Shown: positions 1 to 38,282, numbered from the stretch's first letter. The stretch is 40,836 bases of DNA from a virus (IMGVR_UViG_3300034138_000059:1-40836), one strand, 5' to 3'. The notes: generated from the letters alone by a model not told the origin. Numbers and translations: made by a program.

Positions 1-127
1 GGGGCCGCTTCGTCGTTCCCGGGGTCACTGCCGGCGCCTCCGGCGGGTCGCGGGTGCGTACCGCTCGGCCAGCTCGGCCCGGAGGTCGTCGCGCTCTCCC
101 GACGAGAGGCGCCCGGTGCCCTTCGGC
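1..127. repeat. Left copy of an exact 127-bp terminal direct repeat (identical to 40710-40836)
   Basis: Read base by base: GGGGCCGCTTCGTCGTTCCCGGGGTCACTG...GGTGCCCTTCGGC is present at both window ends. It contains the 3' end of the 25..339 gene. Confidence 0.97.
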
Positions 128-339
128 ATCAGGTACCCGTCTGGGTAGGAGTAGGGCCGCCGCTTCACGAAGCGCCCGCGACGATCGAGCACGTAGGCCC
201 GTTGCCCCCCGCACCGGATGCAGACGAGTCCCTGGTCGAAGGCCCCGGACGCCCGGTCCCGGCTCACCGTGCCGGCCTTCCAGGCGTGCCCCCAGAGCCG
301 GCACTCCAGGAACTCGGTCGGCATGTCCTCGCCGGGCAT
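25..339 (-). CDS. Hypothetical 104-aa Cys/His protein (possible zinc ribbon), translationally coupled to the integrase
   Basis: C-terminal part of track ORF 25..1302. The ATG at 339 overlaps the integrase stop (ATGA). Third codon positions are almost all G/C when read by eye. C13, H18, C40-x2-C43 are present. The remaining N-terminal part of the track ORF is Arg/Pro/Gly junk. Confidence 0.75.
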   Translation of the reverse strand: MPGEDMPTEFLECRLWGHAWKAGTVSRDRASGAFDQGLVCIRCGGQRAYVLDRRGRFVKRRPYSYPDGYLMPKGTGRLSSGERDDLRAELAERYAPATRRRRRQ

Positions 340-1358
340 CAGTCGTCTCCTTCGAGGTCGAGCTGGGCCGTCACGGTGTGCGCGACGGCACCCAGGCGTC
401 GGAGCGCGTTCGCGCCCCGGTCGTACAGGCGGGTCGTGTCCGGCGAGGCGTGGCCCATGAAGTCTTGGAGCCAGGCCAAGTTCGCGTCCTTCGTGTCGAG
501 GTAGAGCGTGGCGAAGGTGGCCCGGAAGACGTGCGGCGTCAGGTGCCGCTCGATCGAGCCGTCCTCGCGCCTGGTCGAGATGCCGGCGTCGAGCCCCAGG
601 TGCTCGCACAGGCGGTAGAGCCACTGGTAGTCGGCGTCGGTCGCCCCGGTGCCGATCAGGAAGTCGCCCGTCGTGCCGGCGAGGTAGGTATCCAGCCGGG
701 CGGCGACGGGCGGGTCGAGGACGAGCTTCTTCGTCTTGCCGCCCTTGCGCGTCACCGTGATGACCTTCCGGCCGTGGTCGAGCACGTAGTCGCTCCGGCG
801 CGCCGTGAGCAGCTCTCGCGCCCTGATGGCGAGCGTGCCCATCAGGAGGACGGCGACGGCCTCCCGTCGCCCGTGCGAGGCGCCCCGGGGGCGAGAGGGG
901 CACTCCGGCGGGGGCCACCGGGCCACCTTCAGCACCCGATCCAGCTCCTCGGCCGTGAGCGCCATCGTCTTGCCCTCGCCGCCGAAGGTCGGCCGGTCGA
1001 TGTCGAGAGCCGGATTGACCCAGGTCCACCCGAGCGCGGCGAGCGCGGGCGACTCCGGCAGGCGGGCGAGGTACTTGTAGAGGCTCGCCACGGCCGAGAG
1101 CTTGCGGCCGACCGAGGAGGGCGCGAGGTCGGCGTCCTCCAGCTCGGCGGCCCAGGTATCCACCGTGACCCGGTGGGCACGCCACGGATCGACCCCGCGC
1201 CGGGCGCAGAACGCCCGCCACTGCCGCAGATCCGTGCGGTAGGCCTTCCGGGTCGTGGCGCGCCTCTTGGACGTCAGGAAGGCTTCCACGGCGGCCTCCC
1301 ACGGGTCCGGCTGGACGACCAGCTCGGCCGCCGGCCGGACGACCAGCTCGCCGGTCAC
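339..1358 (-). CDS. int: Tyrosine recombinase / phage integrase
   Basis: C-terminal catalytic motifs LTPHVFRATFAT (HxxR) and GHASPDTTRLYDR (His...Tyr), plus an N-terminal SAM-like core-binding region (AYRTDLRQWRAFC). Start placed at the in-frame GTG at 1358, because codons 1359-1553 of the track ORF have poor GC3 and Arg-rich content. The start is uncertain. Confidence 0.9.
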   Translation of the reverse strand: MTGELVVRPAAELVVQPDPWEAAVEAFLTSKRRATTRKAYRTDLRQWRAFCARRGVDPWRAHRVTVDTWAAELEDADLAPSSVGRKLSAVASLYKYLARLPESPALAALGWTWVNPALDIDRPTFGGEGKTMALTAEELDRVLKVARWPPPECPSRPRGASHGRREAVAVLLMGTLAIRARELLTARRSDYVLDHGRKVITVTRKGGKTKKLVLDPPVAARLDTYLAGTTGDFLIGTGATDADYQWLYRLCEHLGLDAGISTRREDGSIERHLTPHVFRATFATLYLDTKDANLAWLQDFMGHASPDTTRLYDRGANALRRLGAVAHTVTAQLDLEGDD

Positions 1359-1524
1359 GAGGGCTTCACCCCGTCCGCGACGCACCCCGGGCACAAGTCC
1401 AGCGCGCCCGGGAGTTCGGTTCGACCGCCGGCTCCTCGGAGCGCGGCGCGGGCTTGAGTGGCGGACTGGCGGCTCGCCGTGGTCACGCACGCACAGCCGT
1501 CGCAGATGATCACGTACTCCACGC

Positions 1525-1842
1525 TCACCGGAAGGCCCTCCAGCCAGCGTCAAGGCAGGCCGTGGCGAAGCCGTCGGCCGCTACCTGCCAGGCCGCGGGC
1601 TGACGGGTGCTGCGGATCAGCGCGCGGGCCGCGAGTGGGAGCGTGGTCACGCTCGACCTGGAGGCCCACTCCTGGACCTTCGACGCCAGGGCCTTGCGCT
1701 CGTCGAGAGTGAGGCCCGACTCGTAGCCCTCGGCGAAGTCGTCGCAGGCGAGTCGGCCGGCGTCGTCGAGAGTCCGGCCGGCGGGCGCCCCGCACGCCGA
1801 CAGGAGCACGACGAGGACGACGGCGGCGAGCTTCGCGCGCAT
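1525..1842 (-). CDS. Putative secreted lipoprotein (105 aa)
   Basis: MRAKLAAVVLVVLLSAC gives a signal peptide with lipobox L-S-A-C. The ATG at 1842 overlaps the stop of the upstream small gene (ATGA). The upstream part of track ORF 1525..2151 is Arg-rich and rejected. Confidence 0.8.
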   Translation of the reverse strand: MRAKLAAVVLVVLLSACGAPAGRTLDDAGRLACDDFAEGYESGLTLDERKALASKVQEWASRSSVTTLPLAARALIRSTRQPAAWQVAADGFATACLDAGWRAFR

Positions 1843-3612: not shown

Positions 3613-3622
3613 GCACCTATCG

Positions 3623-4486
3623 TCACGCCTGGGCGGCGTCAACGCGGACGACTTCCGCCAGCTCGCGGTCCAGCCGACGGGCCGACTCCTCGCGCTTCCG
3701 TTCGATCCAGAAGTTGTCCGACCCACCGTGCCGACGGCCCAGCTCGGCCGCCGAGACGTCGTCGAGGCCGGCCAGAGCGGCCAGGATCTCGGCCGCCGCG
3801 GGCCGGCTCGGCGCCGGCCGCTTCATCGAGATCAGCGTCGTCTCGGGCTCGACGGTCGGGCCGACCGCCATCGCCTCCGCTCGGATGCTCTCCGTTCGGA
3901 TCGGGTCCTTCGGAGTCGCCGGCAGGACCGCGAGCGGCTCGGTCAGCGGCGCGTCGCTCGGGAGGATGGTCGGGCCGTTCGGGCTCTCGCTCGGGGTCGC
4001 GCTCGGACGCTCGGGCCGAGCGGCTCGGGTCCGCGCTCGGGTCTTCGGGCTCGCGCTCGGGGTGACGCTCGGGATCTGCTCGGACTCACGCTCGGACTCC
4101 TGCTCGGACCGCTCAGGCTCGGGCTCGGCCGCTCGGGCCTGCTCGAACTCCAGCGCGAGGGTCATCAGGACGACCGTGGCGATCGGGGCGAGGGCGATGA
4201 TCCGGCCCGAGATCGTCGGCTCGGAGGTCGACAGGGCGGCCCAGCACAACCAGGCGAGCCCGACCAGGGTCATCAGCCAGCCGACGATCGCCTTCGGCGA
4301 GTACCGGAGCTTCCAGACCCCGATCAGGATCAGGATGTCCGGCACGAAGGAGAGCGCGAGCTGGCGCCAGCCGTCGGTCCGGTGCTGGCCCAGGTGGTCG
4401 AAGACGTGCGAGACGTTCCAGGCCAGCACGCCGGCCCAGGCGACCGCGGTCACGCGCGTCATCCATCGACGCTCGCTCGGCGGCAT
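3623..4486 (-). CDS. DUF2637-like membrane protein with low-complexity linker and C-terminal domain (287 aa; the track ORF extends to 4549)
   Basis: N-terminal hydrophobic helices with LSFVPDILILIG, as in DUF2637 proteins of actinomycete conjugative elements and phages, followed by a Ser/Glu/Pro-rich linker. I prefer the ATG at 4486 (GGGAGA RBS 8 nt upstream), because the 21 codons up to 4549 have only about 60% GC3. Confidence 0.7.
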   Translation of the reverse strand: MPPSERRWMTRVTAVAWAGVLAWNVSHVFDHLGQHRTDGWRQLALSFVPDILILIGVWKLRYSPKAIVGWLMTLVGLAWLCWAALSTSEPTISGRIIALAPIATVVLMTLALEFEQARAAEPEPERSEQESERESEQIPSVTPSASPKTRARTRAARPERPSATPSESPNGPTILPSDAPLTEPLAVLPATPKDPIRTESIRAEAMAVGPTVEPETTLISMKRPAPSRPAAAEILAALAGLDDVSAAELGRRHGGSDNFWIERKREESARRLDRELAEVVRVDAAQA

Positions 4487-4585
4487 CGGACGGGTCTCCC
4501 AGAGCTTCACGTTCGGATCTCCTTCGGGTCGTTCGGGTCGACGGGACATCGACGTTCGGGACGTGCGCTCGGGTCGGTGCTCGGA

Positions 4586-4891
4586 TCAGAGTCGGCGTGC
4601 TCGCCGCCGCGCGGCCTCCTGGGGGCTTCGGGTCAGCGCCCGAAGCCCCCCGAGCGCGAGGGCGAGGACCCCGAGCACGGCGAGCACGGTCGGGCCGGAC
4701 AGCCCGAACGTGCCCGAGGCCCAGGCCCAGAGCCGAACGGCTCCGAGCCCGAGCGTCCCGAGCGCGACCGCGGCGACCGCGGCGACCAGGAGGTACCGGC
4801 CGCCCCAGCGCCAGAACAGGATGGTCCGGCGGTGCCGGCGGCCGGTCTCGGTCAGCGCGGCGTCGACCATCCGGTCCAGGTCTCGTCCCAT
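4586..4891 (-). CDS. Hypothetical membrane protein (101 aa, 2 predicted TM helices)
   Basis: MGRDLDRMVDAALTETG... followed by YLLVAAVAAVALGTLGLGAV and TVLAVLGVLALALGGL. AGGAGA RBS lies upstream of the ATG at 4891. The upstream part of the track ORF is rejected. Confidence 0.75.
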   Translation of the reverse strand: MGRDLDRMVDAALTETGRRHRRTILFWRWGGRYLLVAAVAAVALGTLGLGAVRLWAWASGTFGLSGPTVLAVLGVLALALGGLRALTRSPQEAARRRARRL

Positions 4892-4902
4892 GATCTGTTC
4901 TC

Positions 4903-5283
4903 CTACTTGTCGGCGGCGAAGTCGCCCGAGCTGGCCTTCTGGCCCCCGAGCATCTGCTCCTCCTCGGCGATGGCGGCCGAGAGGTTCCGGGCGGCCTCCT
5001 CCATGTGGGCCGCGGCGTTGAAGTAGAGCTTCCGGATCTTGCGGGCCGTCAGGATCTTGTCGATCCGCAGCCCCCAGCGGCTCGTCTTGCGGAGCTTCTG
5101 GTAGACGGCCTCGCCGGCCGAGTAGTACCCGTCGGCCCCCTGGACCTCCCGGGCGCGGCACTTCTCGGTGGCGGCGATCAGCTCGCTCGTCGTGCCGGCG
5201 GCCTCGACCGCTCGGGCCGGGTGGCGCACCGGGGCGGTGCCCTGGGCGGCCGGACGGGACCTCGTGCTCGTTTCCATGATCAT
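4903..5283 (-). CDS. Hypothetical 126-aa protein
   Basis: C-terminal part of track ORF 4903..5385. Start at MIMETSTRS (ATG at 5283, alternative at 5277). Helical, Lys/Arg/Ala/Glu-rich C-terminal half. Confidence 0.65.
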   Translation of the reverse strand: MIMETSTRSRPAAQGTAPVRHPARAVEAAGTTSELIAATEKCRAREVQGADGYYSAGEAVYQKLRKTSRWGLRIDKILTARKIRKLYFNAAAHMEEAARNLSAAIAEEEQMLGGQKASSGDFAADK

Positions 5284-5295
5284 CTCACTCTCTGT

Positions 5296-5464
5296 AGCGT
5301 CGGAGCGTTGTGTCGGGCTTGTGTCGGATGCGTCGGAGGCCTGGAGGCCGTTGTGTCGGCGAGGCTCTGACCTGCACCGACGCAACTTGCGTCGGCCGAC
5401 GCATCCCTAGGGAAATGAGCCCCGTGCGGGCACTTGCGTCGGCGCCGTGGCGGACGCCGACGCG
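5296..5464. repeat. Array of ten TG(C/T)GTCGG / CCGAC(G/A)CA 8-mers (clt-like candidate cis site)
   Basis: Forward copies at 5296, 5309, 5320, 5329, 5352, 5388 and 5435. Reverse copies at 5377, 5396 and 5457. Perfect palindrome TGCGTCGGCCGACGCA at 5388-5403. Confidence 0.85.
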
Positions 5465-5466
5465 AG

Positions 5467-7881
5467 TCACTCGTAGTGAGCGTCCGGGTCCTCGCCCGGC
5501 TCGTCACCCGTGGACGGGATGGGCGGGTTGAGGACCCCCAGGCGGACCTTCCAGCTCGCCGGCCGGCGCCCGCGGGCGGACGCCACGCGCTCCGCGAAGC
5601 CGAGCGCGGCCAGCTTGTGCAGCCGCTCGCCGAGGGCCGCTCGCGGGTTGCCGTAGCTGAAGATCCCGGTCTCGGCCCACAGCTCGCCGAGCGTCGACGT
5701 GTCGACCTCGATCCACTCCGGGTTGCCCTTCTTCGCGAAGATCCCTCGGAAGACCTCGATCAGGGCGGCGTCGGCCTCCTCCGGCGTCATCACCTTCTGC
5801 GGCAGCTCGTCGCCGAGGACCATGTCGTCCTCGGGGTCGACGGGCTCCAGCGCCCGTGAGACCCGCGGGTCGATGCCCTCGACGAGCTGGCGGGACTCCT
5901 CGTCGTCGTACAGCTCGCGCGCCTCCTGGCGGGCTTCGCTCTGGTCGATCGAACGCATCTCGTCCTCCTCCTCTTCGGCCGTGATCGGCCCCTGGTTGGT
6001 CTGCAACTTCCCCAGCTCCTCCTCGACGCTGGTCGCCCGGCTCGGGAGGGCGGGCGGGAACTCTGTCGTGACGCCGGCCGCCTGGAGGGCGGGGACGGCG
6101 ATCTCGGCGACCGCGCGGACGGCGGCCTCGGGCGTGCCGGCCGGCGGCGTCATCAGCTCGACCTCGTGCGCCTCCATCCAGTCCTCGCGGTTGCAGCGCT
6201 GGCGCTCCTGGTAGGTCTTGCCGTAGGCGCCCATCGAGGCGATCGAGCCCTGGTCGAGCTTCGCCATGACCGGCGCCCACCACGCGACGTGCCAGTGCAG
6301 GACGTCGGGCGGGATCGGCAGGAAGGTCCGGGCCGGCATCGCCCAGCGCTCCTGGGCGACCAGGGTCGACTCCAGGTAGGACATGCCGGGCTTCGCGTCG
6401 GCCCAGGCCCCCGGGTCGGCGCCGTAGGAGAGCGTCGTGTCCGACAGGGCCATGTTCGCGTCCGAGCTGTCCTTGATCCCGAAGCACCAGCCCCCGCCCA
6501 GCGACGAGCGGAGCGAGGTGTTTATGTTGTCCGCGCTCGCCCGCTGGAGCGAGATCGAGAGCGAGATCCCGACCGACCGGACCTGCTCGCCGAGGCGGAC
6601 GATGTCCTTGTCGAAGAACTCGGCGACGTCGGCGAACTCCTCGATGTGGACGATCAGGTATGGCAGCTTCAGGTGCTTCCAGGCGTCCGGGGTCCACTGC
6701 CGACCCTCGGCCTTGAACTTCTTCTTCAGCAGCGCGAGCGCGCCGGCCCGGTAGTTGACGATGAAGCGGAGGGCCTTCGCCATCGCCGCGGCCTCGGGCT
6801 TGCCGGTCGCGCACCAGTCGACGGCCGGCAGGATGTCGTCCGCGGTCTGGGCGCCCTTCACGGTGTCGACCCACCAGAGGACGACGTCGGGACGGGTGAC
6901 GATCTCGCTCACCTCGTGCAGCTCGGCCTCGGTCTTGCCGGCGCCCGGCATGCCCATGACGAGGTAGGACCGGGCGTTGCGGCCCTTCTTCGGGTCGCCC
7001 GGCCGCACCATCTCGAAGGCCGAGCCGTCCTCGTACCGGCCGAGCCGGCACGGCTCGGCGATCGACTGCCCCGGCCGGCTCGGCCCGGGCCAGGGCGCGG
7101 ACTCGGCGAGGACGTCCTTCGTCACCAGGGTCAGCCGGGTCTTGGAGGCGTCGGTCGGGTCGGGGATGACCCGAGCCGCGGTCGGGGGCAGGCCGGCGAG
7201 CGAGAGCAGGTCCGGCATGCCCTTCGCGATGCTCGCCGACTGCGCGCCCTTGTGCGACAGCACGAACTCGTGACGGACGCCGTCCTCGGACGGCTCGTGC
7301 TTGACGACCCGGACCTTCGCCTTGACGCCGAGGATCTCGGCCAGGTCGTCCGACCCGTCGGTCTGCGGGTGCTCGTCGTGACCCTCGCCCATCACGGCGC
7401 GGGAGCGACGGATGTTCCAGCTCAGCGCGACGAGCGCGGCGAGCAGCGAGTGGCCGTCGACCCAGGGGCGCTGCACCCAGAGGGTCAGCGGTCCGCCCGT
7501 GCTGTCGACGCTGACGAAGCCGATCAGGGTCGTGACCGCGACCGACAGGAGCGCGAAGCCGACGGTCACGGCGGCGCGCCACCGCGTGTAGTCGCCTCGG
7601 GGCTTCGCTTCGTGCAGGGTCACCCAGGCGAAACCGGCGCCCGCGAGCACCAGGACCGCGGCGATGGCGAAGCGCCAGCCAGTCTGGCCCCAGACCGCGT
7701 GCGCGATCATGCCGGCGGCCGGCACGGCCACGAAGCCGCCGATCCACGGACCGAGGTACTCGTCCAGGTCGGTCCCGGGGATGAAGTCGAACCAGCTCTT
7801 CTTCCGCTCGCGGGGCTGGCGCCGCGGTGCCGGAGCCGGCTTCCGGCCGGACGGGCGGGGCTTGCGGGTCGTCGAGGCCAT
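5467..7881 (-). CDS. FtsK/SpoIIIE-family DNA translocase, TraB-like (804 aa, N-terminal TM helices)
   Basis: Walker A GMPGAGKT, Walker B-like YLIVHIEEFADV, and an FtsK-type segment SLQRASADNINTSLRSSLGGGWCFGIKDSSD. Three to four N-terminal hydrophobic helices. C-terminal about 100 aa look like a winged helix. GAAGGAGGA RBS lies 7 nt upstream of the ATG at 7881. Confidence 0.9.
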   Translation of the reverse strand: MASTTRKPRPSGRKPAPAPRRQPRERKKSWFDFIPGTDLDEYLGPWIGGFVAVPAAGMIAHAVWGQTGWRFAIAAVLVLAGAGFAWVTLHEAKPRGDYTRWRAAVTVGFALLSVAVTTLIGFVSVDSTGGPLTLWVQRPWVDGHSLLAALVALSWNIRRSRAVMGEGHDEHPQTDGSDDLAEILGVKAKVRVVKHEPSEDGVRHEFVLSHKGAQSASIAKGMPDLLSLAGLPPTAARVIPDPTDASKTRLTLVTKDVLAESAPWPGPSRPGQSIAEPCRLGRYEDGSAFEMVRPGDPKKGRNARSYLVMGMPGAGKTEAELHEVSEIVTRPDVVLWWVDTVKGAQTADDILPAVDWCATGKPEAAAMAKALRFIVNYRAGALALLKKKFKAEGRQWTPDAWKHLKLPYLIVHIEEFADVAEFFDKDIVRLGEQVRSVGISLSISLQRASADNINTSLRSSLGGGWCFGIKDSSDANMALSDTTLSYGADPGAWADAKPGMSYLESTLVAQERWAMPARTFLPIPPDVLHWHVAWWAPVMAKLDQGSIASMGAYGKTYQERQRCNREDWMEAHEVELMTPPAGTPEAAVRAVAEIAVPALQAAGVTTEFPPALPSRATSVEEELGKLQTNQGPITAEEEEDEMRSIDQSEARQEARELYDDEESRQLVEGIDPRVSRALEPVDPEDDMVLGDELPQKVMTPEEADAALIEVFRGIFAKKGNPEWIEVDTSTLGELWAETGIFSYGNPRAALGERLHKLAALGFAERVASARGRRPASWKVRLGVLNPPIPSTGDEPGEDPDAHYE

Positions 7882-7943
7882 CGGTCAGTCCTCCTTCGGG
7901 GTGGCGGCGAGCGAGCGGGCGGGACGGGACATCGACGCTCGCC

Positions 7944-8345
7944 CTACTTCGTCTGGCCCGGCTGGAGCCGGGCGGGAACGGGGGCGGCCGGAGTGACCGG
8001 CGCCTGGTAGATCACGGTCTTGACGAGCACCGAGTCGGCCGCCGTCAGGAAGCCGCGCGAGGACGGCTGGAACCAGCGGGCGACGTTGTTGTTGTTCAGC
8101 GTCAGCGTCAGCACCTCGTCGGGGCCGCCGTTCACGCTGGCGAGCACGGCCGACCCGACGGTGCTCGGGGCCGGAACCTCCAGGACCAAGACGGTCATGT
8201 TCGGCGACAGCGTCAGCACCTCACCCTCGTCGGTCTGGACCGAGACGAAGCCGGCCGACGTTGACCCCACGACCCCGGAGGACCGGAGTCGCACGCGGGT
8301 GCCGACGGCCAGGGTGCCGAGGGGGGCGGGCTCGCGCTCGGCCAT
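7944..8345 (-). CDS. Hypothetical 133-aa protein
   Basis: C-terminal part of track ORF 7944..8717. The ATG at 8345 overlaps the upstream stop (ATGA). Beta-rich composition (VLVLEVPAPSTVGSAVLASVNGG...). Confidence 0.7.
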   Translation of the reverse strand: MAEREPAPLGTLAVGTRVRLRSSGVVGSTSAGFVSVQTDEGEVLTLSPNMTVLVLEVPAPSTVGSAVLASVNGGPDEVLTLTLNNNNVARWFQPSSRGFLTAADSVLVKTVIYQAPVTPAAPVPARLQPGQTK

Positions 8346-8569
8346 CAGCGCTGGACCTTCGTGCGCTGGACCACGGCCAGGACGAGCGCGGCCGGTCGGC
8401 TGAAGGTGAGCACGAAGGCCACGGAGGCGGCCACGACGACGATCACGCTCAGGTAGTCGCCCCCGCCGCGGACCGCGGTCGACAGGGAGAACAGGAACGT
8501 CAGCACGCAGAGCGCGCGGGTCAAGGCCTGGGTGGTCGGCGGGGTCTTCGTGACGGTCGGGGTCTTCAT
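8345..8569 (-). CDS. Small membrane protein (74 aa, 2 TM helices)
   Basis: Track ORF. Hydrophobic helices LCVLTFLFSLSTAV and VIVVVAASVAFVLTF. ATGA overlaps at both ends. Confidence 0.75.
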   Translation of the reverse strand: MKTPTVTKTPPTTQALTRALCVLTFLFSLSTAVRGGGDYLSVIVVVAASVAFVLTFSRPAALVLAVVQRTKVQR

Positions 8570-8760
8570 GACGGGGTGCTCTCCTTCTGCTTCGCTGCGG
8601 CGAGGACGGCTTCGACGCTGTCCTCGTAGACCTTGATCGGACCCCGGGGGGCCGTGAGCTGGAAGCCGTCCAGCCGACCGGCGAAGTACCAGCGCCGGAC
8701 GGTCTGGCGCTCGACACCGAGGCGCTTCGCGGCTTGCTCGGTGGTCAACGTGGCGCGCAC
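8566..8760 (-). CDS. Helix-turn-helix DNA-binding protein, excisionase/MerR-like (64 aa)
   Basis: LTTEQAAKRLGVERQTVRRWYFAGRL is a typical Xis-family HTH. GTG start at 8760 with a GAGGAGG RBS. First gene of the leftward operon. Confidence 0.8.
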   Translation of the reverse strand: MRATLTTEQAAKRLGVERQTVRRWYFAGRLDGFQLTAPRGPIKVYEDSVEAVLAAAKQKESTPS

Positions 8761-22497: not shown

Positions 22498-22929
22498 GTG
22501 CCCGAGGACCGCAAGGCCGTGACGCTCCGGCTCCCGCTCCCCCTCCTGAAGGCCATCGACACGGCCTGCCTGGCCGAGGGCACGCCCCGGCACGACTGGC
22601 TGGTCGCCGCCCTCTTCGTGGCGCTGGCCGAGGGGGCCGTCGAGCAGGACGTCGGGCACGTCGAGCGCAAGACCCGGCAGGACATCGAGGCGCTCGTCTG
22701 CTCGCACCCGATGGGCGAGTCGCTCGCGGCGATGGCCTTCAACCTGGCGCGCACCCTCGACCAGGGCGCCGGCCAGCTCCAGGCCGCGCTCGCCCGCGAG
22801 CTGCGCGCGACGCTGAACGACCTCGCGAAGTACGAGCACGGAGGGGCGCCGGATGACGACGACGCTCCAGACCTCGGCGCGCCCGCGCTGGGCAACGCCT
22901 CGGACGACGACCCGTCCGACCCTTGGTAG
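22498..22929 (+). CDS. terS: Terminase small subunit (143 aa)
   Basis: Sits immediately before the large subunit. N-terminal DNA-binding-like segment, helical middle, acidic tail. GTG with an AGGAGG RBS. Confidence 0.7.
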   Translation: MPEDRKAVTLRLPLPLLKAIDTACLAEGTPRHDWLVAALFVALAEGAVEQDVGHVERKTRQDIEALVCSHPMGESLAAMAFNLARTLDQGAGQLQAALARELRATLNDLAKYEHGGAPDDDDAPDLGAPALGNASDDDPSDPW

Positions 22930-24337
22930 GCAGGCCGCCGAGCTGACCGAGCACTACCTCGGCCGCCGGCTGATGCCCTGGCAGAAGCAGGTCGCCGCGG
23001 TCGCGCTGGAGGTCGACCCCGACACCCAGCTCCCGGCCTACCGCACGGTGGTCCTCACGGTCCCCCGGCAGTCCGGGAAGTCGACCTTGATCCTGAGCCT
23101 GTTCCTCCAGCGCTGCATGAGCGAGTTCTGGAAGGCGAGCGGTCGGCCGGACGGCCCGACGCCGGGGCGTCAGCGCTGCATCTACGCGGCGCAGACGCAG
23201 AAGGACGCCCGGCAGAAGTGGGAGTCCGACTACGTCGCCGACATGGAGGCGAGCCCGAAGCTCGCCGGCAAGTTCGACGTCTACCGCGGCTCCGGCCGCG
23301 AGTCGATCCGCTTCCCGAACCGCTCCTCGATCGGCATCACGGCGAACACCGAGAAGGCCGCGCACGGCCAGGTGCTCGACATGCCGGTCGTGGACGAGGC
23401 CTTCTCGCTGGTCGACGACCGGCTCGACCAGGCCTTCGTCCCGGCCATGTCGACCCGCCGACAGGGCCAGCTCTGGATCGTCTCGACGGCCGGCACTCCG
23501 GACTCCTTGTACCTGAAGGCGAAGGTCGACAAGGGCCGCGAGCTGGTCGAGGCCGGCACGACGAGCGGGCTCGCCTACTTCGAGTGGAGCGCGCCCGAGG
23601 ACGCCGACCCCGACGACGAGGAGGCCTGGGCGCGCTGCATGCCCGCCCTCGGCCACACGATCGACCTCTCGGTCGTGCGTGCCGCGCGCCAGACGCTCTC
23701 CACCGGGGAGTTCCAGCGCGCCTACCTCAATCAGTGGATCGACCGCGACGCCGGGGAGCGGGTCATCTCGGCCGAGCACTGGAATCGCTCCTTCGACCCC
23801 GACTCGGAGGTCGAGGGCCGGGTCGTCCTCTCGCTCGACGTCAGCCGCGACCGCGACTGGTCGTGCATCGGCATGGCCGGTCACCGCGACAACCGCGAGC
23901 GCGTCCACGTCCAGACCGTCGCACACGGCCCCGGCACCGACTGGGTCGTCCGCGAGCTGGGCCACCTGCGCGAGCAGGTCGGCCCCCGGGTCCTGGTGCT
24001 CGACGCCGCCGGCCCCGCCGGCTCCATGCTCCCCGAGCTGGTCGCCGACGGCTGGGAGCTGGGCGAGACCCTGATCGTGACCGGCGCCCGCGAGATGGCC
24101 CAGGCCTGCGGCGCCTTCTACGACGACGTCGTCAACGACCGGGTCCGCCACGTCCGCCAGCCTGAGCTGGAGGCCGCGGTCAGCGCCGGCCGCAAGCGCG
24201 AGCTACTCGATACCTGGGCCTGGGGCCGCAAGGCCTCCAGCTCGGACATCACGCCCCTGGTCGGCGTGACGCTCGCGCACTGGGCGCTCTCCGTGAAGCC
24301 CGACAAGTCCTACGACCCGCTGAAGAGCTTCTACTGA
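22853..24337 (+). CDS. terL: Terminase large subunit (494 aa)
   Basis: Walker A VPRQSGKST. Walker B-like MPVVDEAF. C-terminal nuclease-like region (LSLDVSRDRDW). GGAGG RBS before the ATG at 22853. Overlaps terS by 77 nt. Confidence 0.9.
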   Translation: MTTTLQTSARPRWATPRTTTRPTLGRQAAELTEHYLGRRLMPWQKQVAAVALEVDPDTQLPAYRTVVLTVPRQSGKSTLILSLFLQRCMSEFWKASGRPDGPTPGRQRCIYAAQTQKDARQKWESDYVADMEASPKLAGKFDVYRGSGRESIRFPNRSSIGITANTEKAAHGQVLDMPVVDEAFSLVDDRLDQAFVPAMSTRRQGQLWIVSTAGTPDSLYLKAKVDKGRELVEAGTTSGLAYFEWSAPEDADPDDEEAWARCMPALGHTIDLSVVRAARQTLSTGEFQRAYLNQWIDRDAGERVISAEHWNRSFDPDSEVEGRVVLSLDVSRDRDWSCIGMAGHRDNRERVHVQTVAHGPGTDWVVRELGHLREQVGPRVLVLDAAGPAGSMLPELVADGWELGETLIVTGAREMAQACGAFYDDVVNDRVRHVRQPELEAAVSAGRKRELLDTWAWGRKASSSDITPLVGVTLAHWALSVKPDKSYDPLKSFY

Positions 24338-24350
24338 CCAGGAGGTCGCC

Positions 24351-24545
24351 GTGTTCATCGCCCGCGCGACCTCCCTCCTGGAGCTGCTCGGGGCCGCCCT
24401 GATCTCGGCCGCCGTGGCCCTCGGCGTGTACGAGCGTGCGGGGCTGGTCGTCGCCCTGCTCGTCGGGGGCCTCCTGGCCTTCGGCTGGTCCTTCCTGTTC
24501 GGCGCCGTCCACCGTGAAGACCCCCTGGTCGAGGAGGCCCCGTGA
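24351..24545 (+). CDS. Small membrane protein (64 aa)
   Basis: Track ORF, GTG with an AGGAGG RBS, two hydrophobic helices. Confidence 0.7.
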   Translation: MFIARATSLLELLGAALISAAVALGVYERAGLVVALLVGGLLAFGWSFLFGAVHREDPLVEEAP

Positions 24546-25699
24546 GCCTCCTGCGACGCCGCCGGGTCGAGAGCCGGGCGACCACCTTCCAGAACTACTG
24601 GGGAGCCGGCGCCGACCAGCGGTATGCGGGCGACCCGCTCTCCCTGGTGCCGCTCTTCGCGGCCCAGCGGATCATCATCGACGCCGTCAGCTCGACCCCG
24701 CTGCACGCCTACCGCGAGCGCGACGGGATCACCGAGAAGGTGCCCCGCCAGCCCCCGCTGCTCACCACGCCGGTCTGGGGCACGCCGGCCACCTGGAAGG
24801 CCCAGGCCGTCGCCTCCCTGCTCGCCGACGGCAACGCCTTCGGGCTCGTCACGAGCCGCGGCACCGACGGCTGGCCGACCAGCCTGGTCTGGCTCGACCC
24901 GCGGCACGTCACCATCGAGGACGACAACGGCCTGCCGGCCTACCTGCTCGACCAGCGGCCGATCGACTCCGCGGACATCGTCCACATCCCGTGGATCGTC
25001 CCGCCGGGCTCCTGGCGGGGCCTGAACCCGATCTCGGCCTTCCGCTCGACGCTGGAGACCGGCCAGCACGCCCAGCTCACGGCGCGCGACTGGTTCGCGA
25101 ACGGGGCCATCCCGAGCGGCCACATGAAGAACACCCAGCTCCAGCTCGACCCGGCCCAGACCGAGGAGCTGAAGGCCCGCTTCAAGGCCTCCGTCGCGAA
25201 CCGCGAAGTCCTCCTGACCGGCAACGACTGGGATTACAGCACGATCGGCATCCCGGCCGACCAGATCCAGTTCATCGAGACCCTGAAGCTCTCGGCGACC
25301 CAGATCGCCGTGATCTACGGCGTCCCGCCGGAGGAGATCGGCGGCGAGACCGGCTCCTCGCTCACCTACAAGACGCTGGAGCAGACCGAACTCCGGTTCA
25401 ACTCCCGGGTCGTGCAGCCCTGGGCCGTGCGGATCGAGCAGGCCCTGTCGACCCTGATGCCGCGCCCGGTGTTCGCCCGGTTCAACCTCGACGCCACGGT
25501 CCGCTCGGACAGCATCACCCGCGCCCAGGTCCACGAGATCAACCTGCGGACCGGCATCGAGACCCTCGACGAGGGCCGCGCGCTGGAGAACCGCCGTCCC
25601 CTGACGGCGGCCGAGAAGGAAGCCCTGAAGCCCCCCGCACCAGCGCCGGCCCCGCCGGCCGCCCCCGAGGAGGAGGACGACGATGACCCGACCGACTGA
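24542..25699 (+). CDS. Portal protein, HK97-type (385 aa)
   Basis: Position after terL, size, and portal-like segments (DWFANGAIPSGHMKN, LKLSATQIAVIYGVPPEEIG). Acidic C-terminus. Confidence 0.85.
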   Translation: MSLLRRRRVESRATTFQNYWGAGADQRYAGDPLSLVPLFAAQRIIIDAVSSTPLHAYRERDGITEKVPRQPPLLTTPVWGTPATWKAQAVASLLADGNAFGLVTSRGTDGWPTSLVWLDPRHVTIEDDNGLPAYLLDQRPIDSADIVHIPWIVPPGSWRGLNPISAFRSTLETGQHAQLTARDWFANGAIPSGHMKNTQLQLDPAQTEELKARFKASVANREVLLTGNDWDYSTIGIPADQIQFIETLKLSATQIAVIYGVPPEEIGGETGSSLTYKTLEQTELRFNSRVVQPWAVRIEQALSTLMPRPVFARFNLDATVRSDSITRAQVHEINLRTGIETLDEGRALENRRPLTAAEKEALKPPAPAPAPPAAPEEEDDDDPTD

Positions 25700-26381
25700 G
25701 ACCCGGTCCACGACCGGCACGGTCGAGCTTCGCGCGGCCGACACCGGCCTCGGCCGGCTCGGCGGGTACGCCCTGAAGTGGCGCACCCTGAGCCAGAACC
25801 TCGGCGGCTTCGTCGAGACGATCGAGCTGGACGCCGTCGACGACCAGACCGTCCGCGGCGAGCGCGGCGACGTCGTCGCGCGCTACCAGCACGACGATCA
25901 GTACCTGCTCGGCCGGCTCGTCTCCTCGACGCTCCGGCTGTCGAAGGACGCCGTCGGGGTTGAGTACGACGTCGACCTGCCCGAGACCAGCTACGCCCGG
26001 GACGTCCGGGCGCTCGCCGAGCGCGGCGACCTGCGGTACTCGTCCTTCGCCTTCCGTGTGCTCGACGAGGACTGGGACTACACGGACCAGGGCTTCCCCC
26101 TGCGGGTGCTGCGCTCGATCCAGCTCGTCGACGTGGCCCCGGTGGTCAACCCGGCCTACATGGATACGACGACCGGCCTCCGGCACCTCGCCGAGAAGCG
26201 CGGGCTCGACGTCGACACCGTGCTGAAGGCCGCCTCGGTCGACGAGCTGGACGTCCTCCTGCGGGCGGGGGCGCCGACCGTGATCGACACCAAGACCTCC
26301 GGGAGCAGCGGACAGGGCGCCACCCACCCGCCGCTTTCGGTTCGCCGGCTCCGCATGGAGCTGGCCCGCAAGGCCCTCTGA
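25683..26381 (+). CDS. Capsid maturation (prohead) protease, HK97 S78-type (232 aa)
   Basis: GYALKWRTLSQNLGGFVETI, VARYQHD and YSSFAFRV segments typical of the HK97 gp4 family. Sits between portal and capsid. Confidence 0.8.
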   Translation: MTRPTETRSTTGTVELRAADTGLGRLGGYALKWRTLSQNLGGFVETIELDAVDDQTVRGERGDVVARYQHDDQYLLGRLVSSTLRLSKDAVGVEYDVDLPETSYARDVRALAERGDLRYSSFAFRVLDEDWDYTDQGFPLRVLRSIQLVDVAPVVNPAYMDTTTGLRHLAEKRGLDVDTVLKAASVDELDVLLRAGAPTVIDTKTSGSSGQGATHPPLSVRRLRMELARKAL

Positions 26382-26481
26382 CGGCAGGGCGCCACCCACC
26401 GTCGAACGACCGACAACTCTTCCTCGCGCCACCGGCCGCCACCTGGGCGGCGGGGCGCATCGACCTGCCCTGGAGGGCATC

Positions 26482-27705
26482 GTGGACCGTATTCAGGCCC
26501 TGCTGGAGCAGCGGGCGAACATCTACAGCGGCATGACCGCCATCGTCGACCTGGCGACCTCCGAGAAGCGCGAGCTGACCGGCGAGGAGAACGCCGAGTT
26601 CGAGCGTCGCAACGGCGATCTCGACCGGCTCGACGCCCAGGTGAAGGCCCTCACCGAGGGCGAGAAGCGCGCCCAGGACGCCCAGGACGCCCTCTCGGAG
26701 ATCCGGAGCCGTGAGCCCCGCCCCGGCAGCACCCCGGGGCAGGAGAGCGACGTCTCGAAGCGCCTGCGCTCCTTCCTGAAGGGCGAGACCCGGACCTTCG
26801 AGGTCAAGGCCGACGGCCCCGTCGACTTCCGCGTGCTGTCGAAGCTGTCGGCCGGCGCGGGCGCGAACACGGTCAAGACCAGCTTCTACGAGCGGCTGAT
26901 GCAGCACTTCATCGAGGTCGCCGGCATCATGCAGCTCGGCCCGACCGTGCTGAACACCACCTCGGGCGAGCAGATCCTGGTCCCGAAGACCACCGGCCAC
27001 TCGACCGCCTCCCTGGTGGCCGAGGCCGGCACCATCGCCGCGAGCGACCCGGCCTTCGGCCAGATGCCGCTCGACGCCTACAAGTACGCGACGCTCTTCC
27101 AGGTCTCCTCGGAGCTGCTCCAGGACACTTCGGTCGACATCGAGGGCTACCTCTCGATGCAGGCCGGTCGCGCCGTGGGCAACGCCTTCGGCACGCACGC
27201 CATCACCGGCACCGGGACCAACCAGCCGAACGGCGTCATGACCGCGGCCACCGTCGGTGTCACCGGGGCGGCCTCGGTCGTCGGCGCCTTCACGGCCGAC
27301 AACCTGATCGACCTCTTCTACTCCGTCATCGCGCCGTACCGGAACAGCCCGTCGGCCGGCTGGCTGATGCGCGACGCCACGGTCGGCAACGTCCGGAAGC
27401 TGAAGGACTCGGCGGGTCAGTACCTCTGGCAGCCCAGCCTCCAGGTCGGTGTGCCGGATACCTTCCTCGGCAAGCCGATCGCCACCGACCCGAACGTCGG
27501 CGCGGTCGCGCTCTCCGCGAGGAGCGTCGCCTTCGGCGACTTCAGCCGGTACATGGTCCGGCTCGTGAACGGCGTCCGGTTCGAGCGGAGCGACGACTTC
27601 GCCTTCAACACCGATCTCGCCACCTACCGCTGCATCATGCGGGCGGACGGCGACCTGGCCGACACGACCGGCGCGATCAAGGTCTTCGTCGGCAACGCGG
27701 CCTGA
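26482..27705 (+). CDS. Major capsid protein, HK97 fold, with N-terminal coiled-coil delta domain (407 aa)
   Basis: Position and size. Coiled-coil N-terminus. LVAEAGTIAASDPAFGQMPLDAYKYATLFQVSSELLQD. Followed by a strong terminator. Confidence 0.9.
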   Translation: MDRIQALLEQRANIYSGMTAIVDLATSEKRELTGEENAEFERRNGDLDRLDAQVKALTEGEKRAQDAQDALSEIRSREPRPGSTPGQESDVSKRLRSFLKGETRTFEVKADGPVDFRVLSKLSAGAGANTVKTSFYERLMQHFIEVAGIMQLGPTVLNTTSGEQILVPKTTGHSTASLVAEAGTIAASDPAFGQMPLDAYKYATLFQVSSELLQDTSVDIEGYLSMQAGRAVGNAFGTHAITGTGTNQPNGVMTAATVGVTGAASVVGAFTADNLIDLFYSVIAPYRNSPSAGWLMRDATVGNVRKLKDSAGQYLWQPSLQVGVPDTFLGKPIATDPNVGAVALSARSVAFGDFSRYMVRLVNGVRFERSDDFAFNTDLATYRCIMRADGDLADTTGAIKVFVGNAA

Positions 27706-27711
27706 TCCACC

Positions 27712-27739
27712 CCGGGCGGGGGCTTCGGCCCCCGCCCGG
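27712..27739 (+). terminator. Intrinsic terminator after the capsid gene
   Basis: CCGGGCGGGGGC, TTCG loop, GCCCCCGCCCGG. Perfect 12-bp stem. Confidence 0.85.
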
Positions 27740-27808
27740 ACCGCTCCAGACATCGACAGGTAATGCGAGTTATCTGTCACTCAGTCCCCCGATCAAGGAG
27801 AACCTGTC

Positions 27809-28366
27809 ATGGCACGAGTCGTGCTCGCCGCGGACATCAGCGGCACCAGGGACGGGAAGAGCTGGCCCCCGCGGGGGACCGAGGTCGACCTGCCCGACAC
27901 CGAGGCCGCGGACATGGTCCGGGCCGGCACCGCCTACGAGCTGGACGACGAGCGCGTCGCCTCCACCCGTGGCGGCGTCTTCACGAAGCTGGAGCTGGCC
28001 GGGGCGCCCACCGGGCGCGAGTCGACCGACGGCCAGCCGGACACCAACCTCGCCCGCGCCCAGGCCATCGGCCAGGGCGAGCAGGCCCGCCCCGTCGCCC
28101 GCGCGGCGGCCGAGGAGACCGGCTACGTCGACGAGAACCTGATCCCCGGGCGGGCCGGCGGCCCGACCGTCGGCGACGGCGAGGACAACCCGACCGCGAG
28201 CACCCGCGCGGCCGACGAGGCACCGAAGACCGTCGCGCCCCCGGCCAAGACCGAGGGCTCGAAGGGCAACGACACCCCGGAGACCGCTCGCGCCTCGGAG
28301 GCCGACGTCGAGACCGGCACCGCTCGCGGCACCGTCCGGCGCGGCGGCCCCGGCAACGGTCGCTGA
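27809..28366 (+). CDS. Hypothetical 185-aa head-module protein with disordered C-terminal half
   Basis: Track ORF with an AAGGAGA RBS. Folded-looking N-terminal 50 aa, then low complexity. Confidence 0.75.
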   Translation: MARVVLAADISGTRDGKSWPPRGTEVDLPDTEAADMVRAGTAYELDDERVASTRGGVFTKLELAGAPTGRESTDGQPDTNLARAQAIGQGEQARPVARAAAEETGYVDENLIPGRAGGPTVGDGEDNPTASTRAADEAPKTVAPPAKTEGSKGNDTPETARASEADVETGTARGTVRRGGPGNGR

Positions 28367-28381
28367 AGCGTCACCGGGGCT

Positions 28382-28417
28382 CCAGGACGCCTTCGGCTTC
28401 GGTCGAGGGCGTCCTGG
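28382..28417 (+). terminator. Hairpin (10-bp stem)
   Basis: CCAGGACGCC 28382-28391 pairs with GGCGTCCTGG 28408-28417. Confidence 0.5.
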
Positions 28418-28475
28418 GGGCTTCCGGGCTTGATCGACTTCTGTCAGAACGATTCTGAGCGCGATCGGGGGCGAC

Positions 28476-28682
28476 ATGGCCGGCTCCATCGCCGCTTCCA
28501 CCCGTTCCGCCGGGGGCGCGAGCGTCCAGGCCTTCACCCGGCCCGGCGGCGGCTCTCCTGGCTCCCTGTACGACGTGGCCCTGTACGACGTGGCCCTGTA
28601 CGACGACCCCGCGGCCCCGACCACCACCTACGGCACCGCGGGCGGCTCTGTGCGGGCCGTCGGAACCCTGACCGGAGGTTGA
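28476..28682 (+). CDS. Hypothetical 68-aa protein containing the tandem LYDVA repeat
   Basis: Track ORF. High GC3 when read by eye. 15-bp tandem repeat CTGTACGACGTGGCC x2.8 at 28566-28607. Confidence 0.6.
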   Translation: MAGSIAASTRSAGGASVQAFTRPGGGSPGSLYDVALYDVALYDDPAAPTTTYGTAGGSVRAVGTLTGG

Positions 28683-28686
28683 ACCC

Positions 28687-29646: not shown

Positions 29647-29657
29647 TCGGAGGCACC

Positions 29658-30509: not shown

Positions 30510-30967
30510 TGGCGACCGGCAGCGCGATCCCGGGCGTGAAGAGCTACCTCGTCGACACCCTGCTCCCGACCCTCTTCCCCGCGGCCCAGGTCATCTACGG
30601 CCCGCCCGGGGGCTGGCTCGGCGAACAGGTGATCAGCGTCGGCAACGCCACCGTCGAGTCCTCGCAGATGATCCTCGGCACGAACCGGCCCCGCCGGGAG
30701 GACGCCGAGGTCGAGGTCATCCTGTCCGTCTTCCAGGGGGGCGGGCCGGAGGCCCAGCAGACGGCCACCGAGGCCGCCTTCACCATGCTCGGCACCTTCG
30801 CCGACCACTTCCGCACCCAGGGGAACGAAACCCTCGGCGGGGCCTGCGACAACGCCTACGTCTCGGCCTACTCCCTCGACGAGACCGACGACCCCGACGT
30901 CCTGGAGAAGGGCCGCTACGCGGCCCTCGTCGCGACCCTCACCGTCCAGACCTTCCGCCTGCTCTGA
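30509..30967 (+). CDS. Hypothetical neck/tail-joining protein (152 aa)
   Basis: ATGA-type overlap with the connector gene. Position within the neck module. Confidence 0.65.
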   Translation: MATGSAIPGVKSYLVDTLLPTLFPAAQVIYGPPGGWLGEQVISVGNATVESSQMILGTNRPRREDAEVEVILSVFQGGGPEAQQTATEAAFTMLGTFADHFRTQGNETLGGACDNAYVSAYSLDETDDPDVLEKGRYAALVATLTVQTFRLL

Positions 30968-30980
30968 AGGAGCCCCCGCT

Positions 30981-32790: not shown

Positions 32791-32811
32791 GCCCACACCA
32801 GGAGACCCGCC

Positions 32812-33171: not shown

Positions 33172-33185
33172 CCCCGGCCGGCTTC

Positions 33186-35310: not shown

Positions 35311-35333
35311 TCCGCCACCCAGAGGAGTGAGGC

Positions 35334-38270: not shown

Positions 38271-38282
38271 GAGGAGCACCAC

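Follow-up and report, generated by a model that had tools for sequence, protein, structure and literature searches.

The DNA analysed here, referred to as the window, is a 40,836-nucleotide viral stretch (IMGVR_UViG_3300034138_000059:1-40836), of which positions 3623 to 8760 hold a block of seven genes reminiscent of a conjugative element. The original prediction, made from the sequence alone, described this block as a Tra/Spd-type unit embedded in a complete siphovirus genome, and as a possible chimera between a phage and an actinomycete integrative and conjugative element (AICE). We propose with high confidence, on the basis of gene content and homology, that complete viral genomes harbour a conserved and portable cassette made up of a TraB translocase, a site resembling the plasmid transfer site clt and an SpdB2-type membrane protein. 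Its recurrence in carriers of differing kinds indicates that it is not the outcome of a one-off fusion between a phage and an AICE. On balance, we lean towards the view that the cassette moves or spreads phage double-stranded DNA (dsDNA) through the mycelium without virions.

Results

A divergent TraB-family translocase

The central product of the block is an 804-residue protein (5467..7881, minus strand) that is predicted to be a membrane-anchored dsDNA translocase of the TraB family, in which an N-terminus with two transmembrane (TM) helices is followed by an FtsK-like motor, then by an acidic linker and, at the C-terminus, by a winged helix (WH). It matches the NCBIfam profile NF041214 (plasmid_TraB) with E=5.2e-113 and 378.7 bits, over protein residues 40-656 and positions 7-576 of the 639 in the profile, and the PHROG family phrog_24831, annotated as 'unknown function', with E=2.5e-66. 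Matches to general FtsK models were much weaker: Pfam FtsK_SpoIIIE, the match used by AICE surveys, gave E=0.083, and the FtsK/SpoIIIE-like PHROGs 1358, 31069 and 3551 gave E=1e-5 to 1e-9. Sequence relatives in the PDB were FtsK only, and a single-protein scan of IMG/VR revealed no close relative.

When 72,556 plasmids were searched by tblastn, 54 records were retrieved, nearly all of them small Streptomyces conjugative plasmids, at 22-37% identity. Identity to the Tra proteins of pJV1, pSN22 and pWTY27, which have been studied experimentally together with their clt sites (PMC3583192), was 30-37% and covered the N-terminal and motor part only. Among 185,579 species-representative genomes, the best relative was 39% identical, in the motor region only, and no plasmid or AICE TraB in PLSDB or in these genomes exceeds 39% identity to the window TraB, which belongs to a clade of its own. 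The motifs of the motor are nonetheless invariant when compared to the TraBs of pJV1, pSN22 and the NBC_00104 plasmid, namely Walker A GxxGxGKTE (310-318; G310..K316-T317-E318), Walker B hhhhEE (410-415; E414-E415) and SLQRAS (440-448), and the C-terminal signature R-x5-RL-x6-G is invariant with respect to the plasmid TraBs as well. The two TM helices located by Kyte-Doolittle hydropathy (71-89 and 105-123) are nearly co-positioned with those of pWTY27 TraA (68-90 and 102-124; PMC3583192).

The last 114 residues were modelled with AlphaFold2 (AF2), yielding a mean confidence (pLDDT) of 75 and the element order a1-b1-a2-a3-b2-b3. The top Foldseek matches of this model in the PDB were all WH domains, with probabilities of 0.9-1.0 and weak E values of 6e-3 to 0.1, and the C-terminus is thus predicted to be a WH DNA-binding domain. 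Taken as a whole, the 804-residue protein is clearly homologous to plasmid TraBs, and we consider it a genuine but divergent TraB that forms its own clade or subfamily; the membrane-anchored FtsK/TraB-like ATPase of the original prediction is thereby confirmed.

A clt-like repeat array past the traB stop codon

Transfer of Streptomyces plasmids needs just the Tra protein and the cis-acting site clt, which is mostly found where tra ends on its 3' side, or shortly beyond, and is built of direct repeats of 7-9 bp and of inverted repeats (PMC4447253, PMC3583192). In the window, the traB stop codon is followed by a 183-bp non-coding gap (5284..5466, minus strand) that holds ten copies of CCGACRC, where 0.18 would be expected from the rest of the window, together with a palindrome at 5404-5413. 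Seven of the copies are direct and three inverted, and the final four are spaced by 9-13 bp, approximately one helical turn. The eight-letter form CCGACRCA occurs nine times in the window, eight of them within 5309-5442. A conserved GCCCGCACGGGGC...TCCCTAGGGA element stands inside the array, with CCGACRC copies around it. The candidate cis site that had been proposed for 5284-5466 therefore holds up, as a repeat array at the place where plasmids keep clt.

As a positive control, an unbiased scan for clustered 7-mers was run on three authentic plasmids, and in all three it picked CCGCACA at the traB 3' end, which corresponds to the published pJV1 clt repeat (CCGCACA[C/G][C/G], nine copies; PMC3583192). 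The same scan also picked the gap past traB in the window and in a related element, L003. Its top match in the window was another word, CCGAGCG, present ten times at 3941-4140 within the low-complexity, Ser/Glu/Arg-rich linker of the DUF2637-like gene. We note that the repeat words were chosen after viewing the sequences, so that their Poisson P values (1e-8 to 1e-17) are optimistic, and equally so for the controls. Neither Rfam nor scans for sigma-70-like promoters and for terminators returned anything in the gap.

Thus, the array is clt-like in position and build, and is a candidate TraB site. Judging from the predicted C-terminal WH domain, TraB may bind the CCGACRC repeats; candidates for binding the palindrome are the 126-residue protein encoded next to the array, the small helix-turn-helix (HTH) protein at the head of the block and TraB itself. 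Superficially, the palindrome also recalls the core of T7-class promoters, TATAGGGAG, but a phage RNA polymerase was not seen.

A DUF2637-like membrane protein at the end of the block

The most distal gene of the block (3623..4549, minus strand, with a start at either 4549 or 4486) encodes a polytopic protein composed of an N-terminal domain of ~125 residues, a low-complexity linker and a C-terminal tail. Four hydrophobic segments can be recognized by eye in the N-terminal domain, three of which pass a simple hydropathy threshold. No direct match to Pfam PF10935 (DUF2637) was obtained at E<=0.1, either for the window protein or for its versions in the related elements L003, L004 and L013. An exhaustive search of 1.84 billion representatives with a profile of the four-TM domain, in turn, yielded 162 relatives, and 45 of the 150 that were scanned are Pfam DUF2637 proteins (best E=6e-17), several of them with C-terminal WH domains. 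One relative, P0048, provides a link to a traA-traB plasmid, matching the DUF2637 protein annotated there at 1e-36.

Genomic association points in the same direction. The family profile matches open reading frames (ORFs) that adjoin traB in ordinary AICE-type loci of Nonomuraea, Actinomadura and Spirillospora, as well as in IMG/VR contigs, and on the plasmid L012 NCBI assigns DUF2637 to a large polytopic membrane protein adjoining traA-traB. By transitive homology and genomic association only, we therefore place the polytopic protein in DUF2637, as had been predicted. We take DUF2637 to be equivalent to SpdB2. The latter is the conserved four-TM spreading protein of all of these plasmids, and its family is tied to spreading between compartments (PMC4447253).

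The cassette recurs in elements of different kinds

Database searches with TraB and the 126-residue protein, together with contig look-ups, revealed six further elements that carry the cassette, with TraBs 44-74% identical to that of the window. The core that recurs in the seven elements, including the window, consists of TraB, the repeats, the gene for the 126-residue protein and a gene for a protein with two TM helices. Two of the carriers are phage-like: L003 encodes an endolysin after the cassette, L013 an endolysin and a 981-residue tail protein, and no integrase was seen in either. L004 is a complete circular element of 19.2 kb (the locus of 19,351 bp includes a 141-bp assembly overlap, and its junction is read through by an independent assembly) that encodes a P3 capsid of the PRD1 type (PF09018, 37.8 bits versus a cut-off of 25.3), a small packaging ATPase and lysozymes, and in which neither PolB nor an integrase was found. 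In L014 (region 8599-14900), the cassette lies beside a ParA-like gene, a type IV secretion system (T4SS) pilin (PF18895, 30.7 bits versus a cut-off of 26.6) and a weak match to an AAA_10-type ATPase; this element looks non-viral and may be a conjugative element of the T4SS type with a TraB-type system in addition. Downstream of its array, a DUF2637-like gene was not found. The remaining two, L051 and L052, are short contigs in which the gap is partly covered.

A non-coding gap follows traB in all seven elements, and measures 155-183 bp in the five where it is fully covered. The array within it keeps one layout throughout: one forward copy of the repeat, the palindrome GCCC...TCC(C)TA(TA)GG(G)A, two to three inverted copies and, finally, four to five phased direct copies and the ribosome-binding site (RBS) of the next gene. 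Across the window and the six relatives, the palindrome has the consensus CTCCCTATAGGGAG and is preceded by GCCCRCACGGGSC. The repeat word itself varies with the element, being CCGACRC in the window and L014, CCGACGA in L003, CGGACRS in L013, CYGACAC in L004 and CCGACGC in L051 and L052. A covariation between this word and the putative recognition helix of TraB looked promising with five elements and is suggestive for some pairs, but was dropped once L051 and L052 turned out to share one word and yet have differing helices. Linkage of the array to traB is kept across elements whose replication genes differ (prim-pol/AAA_25 in the window, AAA_25 in L003 and an initiator-like HTH protein in L004), which argues against its being a set of origin iterons.

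More distant TraB relatives, at 25-36% identity, were found on 17 predicted viral contigs of IMG/VR, 14 of which belong to phrog_24831, and in a minority of the 17, genes for tail, tape-measure, portal or endolysin proteins lie no more than 10 kb away. On one of these phage contigs, L038, tape measure and tail genes are followed by TraB, a distant homologue of the 126-residue protein and a lysis peptidase, in this order. L007, whose TraB is 40% identical to that of the window, presents a different arrangement of the module, with a Mom-like protein, an HNH nuclease and a 582-residue TROVE/Ro60-like protein (features at 2078-2821 and 17417-19165). With respect to L004, two lysozymes and no protein-primed polymerase were noted, as in L005, and tblastn of the L004 capsid against isolated phages gave no match; the element may represent a new circular virus lineage of actinomycetes with a double jelly-roll (DJR) capsid.

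These comparisons divide the original prediction in two. A Streptomyces-type gene set on a molecule with virion genes is indeed present, and DUF2637 relatives do adjoin traB in AICE-type loci, but a simple chimera of phage and AICE does not fit a TraB that forms its own clade (at most 39% identity) within a portable cassette.

Remaining genes of the block

All seven ORFs are present on the minus strand, with a coding-type G+C content at third codon positions (GC3) of 0.89-0.99, as in the phage genes, and the same genes were found by independent metagenome gene callers on relatives that are 95-99% identical. Successive intergenic gaps measure -4, -1, 62, 183, 11 and 36 bp, and GGAG-type RBSs precede most of the genes. 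This spacing, together with the RBSs, fits an operon, and the block may well be a single transcription unit, as had been suggested; promoter and terminator scans, however, detected neither for the block.

The leftward string is headed by a 64-residue protein of the excisionase family (8566..8760, minus strand), which matches HTH_17 (E=2.7e-7), TIGR01764 (29.9 bits versus a cut-off of 28.8) and PHROG excisionase families. The Xis-type HTH that had been called here thus stands, and the protein may act as Xis or as a regulator of the block; contigs without a visible integrase also have a small HTH gene ahead of traB, unrelated in sequence. It is followed by a 74-residue protein (8345..8569, minus strand; GC3 0.99) with two predicted TM helices (15-33 and 39-57), whose start overlaps the upstream stop by 4 bp, and by a 133-residue soluble protein (7944..8345, minus strand) that occupies the position held by TraA on plasmids. 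The latter shows no similarity to plasmid TraA, and neither of the two is conserved across the related cassettes; the other elements carry small HTH and small membrane proteins upstream of traB that are unrelated in sequence to those of the window.

Downstream of the array, the 126-residue protein (4903..5283, minus strand) is soluble and predicted to be all-helical, and its gene is the best conserved accessory gene of the cassette, with homologues 40-81% identical that are always encoded directly after the repeats. Its AF2 model (pLDDT 67, helical) has no meaningful fold match in the PDB. The next protein, of 101 residues (4586..4891, minus strand), has two predicted TM helices (34-52 and 68-86), and keeps its position in the cassette with a weakly conserved sequence: it is 53% identical in L014 and shows weak N-terminal similarity in L003, L004 and L013.

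The original prediction had further proposed that the block encodes several small Spd-like membrane proteins and forms part of the hallmark gene set of AICEs. Predicted topology agrees with the first proposal, and the DUF2637-like protein can be tied to the Spd family, but the 74-, 133-, 126- and 101-residue proteins match nothing in Pfam, PHROGs, NCBIfam or PADLOC. Likewise, profiles of the accessory proteins matched no ORF of pJV1, pSN22 or the NBC_00104 plasmid, and tblastn of plasmid TraR (three proteins), TraA and SpdA/B against the window gave no match. None of these four proteins can therefore be tied to the Spd family, and any 'Spd-like' label for them would describe topology alone. 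Of the plasmid or AICE hallmarks, TraR/KorA of the GntR type, TraA and SpdA were not found, and no block protein matched a GntR-type (TraR/KorA) family in Pfam, PHROG or NCBIfam. Profile searches with each product thus recovered TraB directly and DUF2637 through intermediates, but gave no Spd, TraA or TraR match for the other small proteins. In PADLOC, the small HTH protein weakly matched the MADS component mad1 (E=6.6e-8) and residues 392-478 of TraB weakly matched mad8 (E=1.1e-5), probably by generic HTH and P-loop similarity.

The carrier is a circular temperate siphovirus

The window has a G+C content of 72% throughout. Its ends are identical over 127 bp (1..127 = 40710..40836), an assembly overlap in direct repeat which reveals a circular or circularly permuted genome whose unique sequence amounts to ~40,709 bp, and the circular junction is read through by the independent contigs L001 and L002. 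Two relatives that are 95-99% identical, an ENA contig (k141; 41,328 bp) and a JGI contig (41,314 bp), are circularly permuted with respect to the window, their integrase being directly followed by tail and lysis genes. The three independent assemblies are colinear across both ends of the block and across the junction. Between independent samples, the region 3319-8926 that contains the block is 97.5% identical, and its flanks are mosaic, for instance at window positions 2105-3319.

A tyrosine integrase (339..1553, minus strand; Pfam Phage_integrase E=5.7e-11, Phage_int_SAM_1 E=2.4e-10, phrog_1 E=7e-34) closes, on the side away from the HTH gene, the leftward string of genes to which the block belongs. 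Profile searches further identified a repressor-like HTH_3 protein (11291-11887, minus strand) and, at 16761-18983, an SF2 (superfamily 2) helicase, an exonuclease and a prim-pol/AAA_25 replicase. The virion and lysis module (22853..40594, plus strand), assigned with PHROG and Pfam, comprises TerL, portal, prohead protease, HK97-type major capsid protein, head-tail adaptor, tube, tape measure, minor tail proteins, holin and endolysin, and includes a tail protein of 978 residues; no sheath gene was noticed among the virion genes. The window is thus confirmed as a complete temperate siphovirus by its gene set, and all parts named by the original prediction (integrase, terminase, HK97 head, tail, lysis) were found, with the end repeat marking circularity. 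The integrase, the Xis-like HTH protein and the prim-pol, which had been taken as signs of an AICE, are ordinary parts of a temperate phage and provide no evidence of AICE ancestry. AICEs are bounded by att sites at a chromosomal target that is usually a tRNA gene. Neither a tRNA gene nor an att site was found in the window, and the circular form alone was seen.

At the DNA level, megablast detected no relative of the window among INPHARED phages. Its capsid protein is ~35% identical to those of phiC31-type Streptomyces phages, and 57% identical to the one encoded on a circular 'plasmid' from Streptomyces sp. NBC_01335 (unnamed2, NZ_CP108372.1, L016; 34,477 bp), and the host is therefore probably a Streptomyces or a related actinomycete. 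Integrated relatives, as a route to the host, gave just ordinary AICE or plasmid TraBs of at most 39% identity among the 185k species genomes. Although annotated as a plasmid, the NBC_01335 element encodes an integrase, prim-pol, terminase, HK97 head, tail and lysis proteins, and is a complete phage genome, probably a prophage in circular or excised form or else a phage-plasmid. Among cultured relatives it comes closest to the window in the head module, and it lacks the cassette. Mapping the insertion site of the cassette by comparing the two genomes was attempted and abandoned, as they are too divergent (40-57% in the head module) to place an insertion point.

Several differences were noted between the window and L001, to which it is 95-99% identical. 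L001 has unrelated DNA in place of window positions 2105-3319, a region that in the window includes an ORF of ~170 codons (~2556-3074, minus strand) with coding-type GC3 and a borderline match to the inner-membrane protein YdjM (28.7 bits versus a cut-off of 29); a longer ORF of 344 residues listed in this region is mostly spurious. L001 also encodes a DNA methylase (PF00145; 4423-5427) that has no counterpart in the window (12425-12798). A WhiB-like gene was called in L001 just upstream of the helicase, and its equivalent is probably located near window positions 12808-13146. The methylase and WhiB differences reflect mosaicism between near-identical phages.

Discussion

A proposed route of spread without virions

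The results suggest the following mechanism. After infection or prophage induction, the phage genome would be present as a circular dsDNA replicon, and the leftward operon, with the Xis-like HTH gene first and int last, would then be expressed. TraB would enter the membrane via its two N-terminal helices and assemble into a ring-shaped, FtsK-like motor, which its C-terminal winged helices would load onto the CCGACRC array just downstream of its own gene. ATP hydrolysis would pump unprocessed phage dsDNA through the septal cross-wall or the fused hyphal envelope into a neighbouring compartment or hypha, while the DUF2637/SpdB2-like protein and the small membrane proteins would form or extend a channel, as Spd proteins do for plasmids. 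The gain would be spread independent of particles, in the lytic cycle or as a lysogen, in a mycelial host whose mature hyphae adsorb virions poorly. Indeed, mature Streptomyces mycelium is poorly infected by virions (PMC10117723), which provides a selective rationale for such spread. The phage homologues of SpdB2 have themselves been suggested to help phage DNA to spread (Thoma et al., PMC4447253). We infer from these parts that the cassette would carry out actual DNA transfer.

A number of observations weigh against this proposal. The TraB match, at 378.7 bits, is far under the NCBI equivalog cut-off of 800, and the protein includes an extra acidic linker of ~100 residues that has no counterpart in plasmid TraBs. 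Four of the six accessory proteins match nothing, and the plasmid partners TraR/KorA, TraA and SpdA were found by neither profile nor tblastn searches. Putative recognition helix and repeat word do not cleanly co-vary, three different helices sharing CCGACGC, and L007, a member of the clade, has no gap after traB. No TraB homologue was detectable by tblastn among the isolated phages of INPHARED, and hence no cultured system is at hand. The mycelial lifestyle of the host is an assumption made from G+C content and nearest relatives and, finally, a lytic programme that kills the donor compartment leaves a short window for transfer.

Other explanations of the cassette

The motor could instead act in segregation or development within one mycelium, as FtsK or SffA would, with the array as a polarity site of the KOPS/SRS kind and the pump clearing the phage or prophage replicon through closing sporulation or vegetative septa, and would then secure inheritance by each compartment and spore and not horizontal transfer. 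The FtsK-like motor, whose PDB sequence relatives are FtsK only, is compatible with such a role, as is the current reading of actinophage ftsK, parB and ssgA homologues as manipulators of development (PMC10117723). In addition, L003, L004 and L013 show no integrase in the available sequence and may need partitioning as plasmids, and SpdA/sps of pIJ101 affects stability rather than transfer (PMC4170104). We nevertheless consider this role rather unlikely, since the closest characterised homologues are conjugative Tra proteins and not FtsK, the SpdB2-type protein of the cassette belongs to a family tied to intercompartment spreading (PMC4447253), and the window phage integrates and so has no need for partitioning. 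Moreover, movement of DNA within a mycelium is mechanistically the same as Spd-type spreading, so that this explanation overlaps with the virion-independent spread that we favour. A selfish or hitch-hiking mobilisation module, or decaying cargo, that brings the phage no benefit and at most mobilises host or co-resident DNA would account for the presence of the cassette in unrelated backbones (a siphovirus, a PRD1-capsid element, a T4SS-like element), for flanks that are mosaic between 95-99% identical relatives and for a related Streptomyces phage-plasmid entirely without it. Such cargo is unlikely in view of ORFs that are all intact, with phage-like codon bias and invariant catalytic motifs, and of a block conserved at 97.5% between independent samples. 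Gene order and array layout have been kept while the proteins diverged to 40-55% identity, which argues for long-term purifying selection in viral backbones, and with a clt-like site in cis the replicon that is moved would be the phage itself.

We regard as distinctly improbable that the pore-forming ATPase and the small membrane proteins serve exclusion, defence or a kil function, blocking incoming DNA (exclusion of superinfecting phages or of plasmids) or arresting host growth, with the array as an operator. Plasmid traB is a kil gene that needs repression (PMC4447253), the array stands before the next three genes and could thus be a regulatory region, and PADLOC returned the weak mad1 and mad8 matches. 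The latter, however, are generic HTH and P-loop matches of 23-31 bits, the wider MADS set not having been searched for. Ten helically phased sites with inverted copies exceed the needs of an operator and fit the architecture of clt; the array is linked to traB in 7/7 elements regardless of the genes downstream, and no sigma-70-like promoter was found in the gap. As for an artefact, be it a chimeric assembly or an AICE lying beside or inside a prophage, the window does come from a metagenome-type assembly, with no cultured isolate and no close INPHARED match. Its likelihood is nevertheless negligible, and we reject it: block and virion genes lie on one circular molecule across independent assemblies, three of which are colinear over the block ends and the junction, there is a single integrase with neither bacterial flank nor tRNA, G+C and GC3 are uniform, and the same linkage is seen in other contigs at 44-55% divergence.

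Relation to known systems

The cassette resembles the TraB/clt systems of pSVH1, pJV1, pSN22, pIJ101 and pWTY27 in its single membrane-anchored FtsK-like translocase with a C-terminal winged HTH domain (predicted here), in a candidate cis site of ~150-200 bp at the tra 3' end with 7-9-bp direct and inverted repeats, and in the associated DUF2637/SpdB2-type membrane protein. It differs from them in sequence (30-37% identity), in the acidic linker, in that GntR-type TraR/KorA, TraA and SpdA/sps were not found, in its carrier, a phage of 40.7 kb that encodes complete virion and lysis functions and is no plasmid, and in the repeat word, which is CCGACRC in the window and CCGCACA or TGACACC on plasmids. 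The pSVH1 word that Vogelmann et al. reportedly described in 2011, GACCCGGA, also differs from CCGACRC.

With AICEs, the window shares a tyrosine integrase, a small excisionase-like HTH protein, a prim-pol-type replication protein, an FtsK-like Tra and a Spd-like membrane protein on one circular element. The AICEs named in a review, by contrast, measure 10.9-17.3 kb and none is described with virion genes (PMC2440964), whereas the window measures 40.7 kb, includes head, tail and lysis genes and has int, xis and prim-pol in a normal temperate-phage layout. Its Tra belongs to a distinct clade (best match 39% among 185k species genomes), the cassette is also found in elements without a visible integrase, and no GntR-type kil-kor repressor (TraR/KorA/KorSA) was found in the block or the window.

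Partial precedents exist among phages. The plasmid-prophage pZL12, or phiZL12, reportedly described by Zhong et al. in 2010 as a ~90-kb extrachromosomal singleton, is like the window a phage-type carrier of transfer genes. It is reported to transfer conjugally by means of a tra locus, as mentioned in PMC3583192, which resembles the spread proposed here. The window differs from it in being an integrating siphovirus of 40.7 kb, and in that its TraB-clt cassette is compact, portable and shared with a PRD1-capsid element; no sequence relation to pZL12 was found, nor does any INPHARED record match the window TraB. The temperate Streptomyces siphoviruses phiC31 and VWB encode SpdB2 homologues, with no mention of TraB or clt in that source (PMC4447253), and thus share with the window a membrane protein of the plasmid-spreading type; unlike them, the window also has the motor and the candidate cis site. 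Actinophage FtsK/SpoIIIE genes (PHROGs 1358, 31069 and 3551) likewise place a P-loop motor of the FtsK superfamily in a phage genome, but the sources used record neither a recognition site nor a Spd partner for these genes, to which a role in development or segregation is usually ascribed (PMC10117723). The parts are therefore of known kinds, with partial precedents in the SpdB2 homologues of phiC31 and VWB, in pZL12 and in actinophage ftsK-like genes; in the literature that was searched, we found no description of a phage with TraB and a clt-like site, nor of the same cassette in a PRD1-capsid element.

Implications

A broader reading can be put forward tentatively, and we hold it possible, if somewhat doubtful: that a family of actinobacterial viruses, both tailed and with PRD1-type capsids, shares the cassette of TraB, clt and membrane proteins, and infects neighbouring hyphae or compartments with naked dsDNA through a conjugation-type pore, as a second, virion-independent route. 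The presence of the cassette in unrelated capsid lineages and in a T4SS-type element suggests an exchangeable mobility module. In practical terms, the analysis supplies an annotation for PHROG family 24831, now of 'unknown function', and a compact traB-clt cassette with a new recognition word might provide an orthogonal tool for DNA delivery to actinomycetes.

Phages are assumed to spread as particles only, and conjugation in Streptomyces is assumed to be a property of plasmids and AICEs. If the proposal is correct, possession of a TraB pump and a cis site could allow a phage to pass through a mycelium, or into a neighbour, when mature hyphae stop adsorbing virions, when receptors are missing or when the prophage is repressed. 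This would call for a rethinking of phage host range, of containment by cross-walls, of the spread of lysogens and of gene flow in antibiotic-producing actinomycetes. In multicellular bacteria, the distinction between viruses and conjugative elements would become less sharp.

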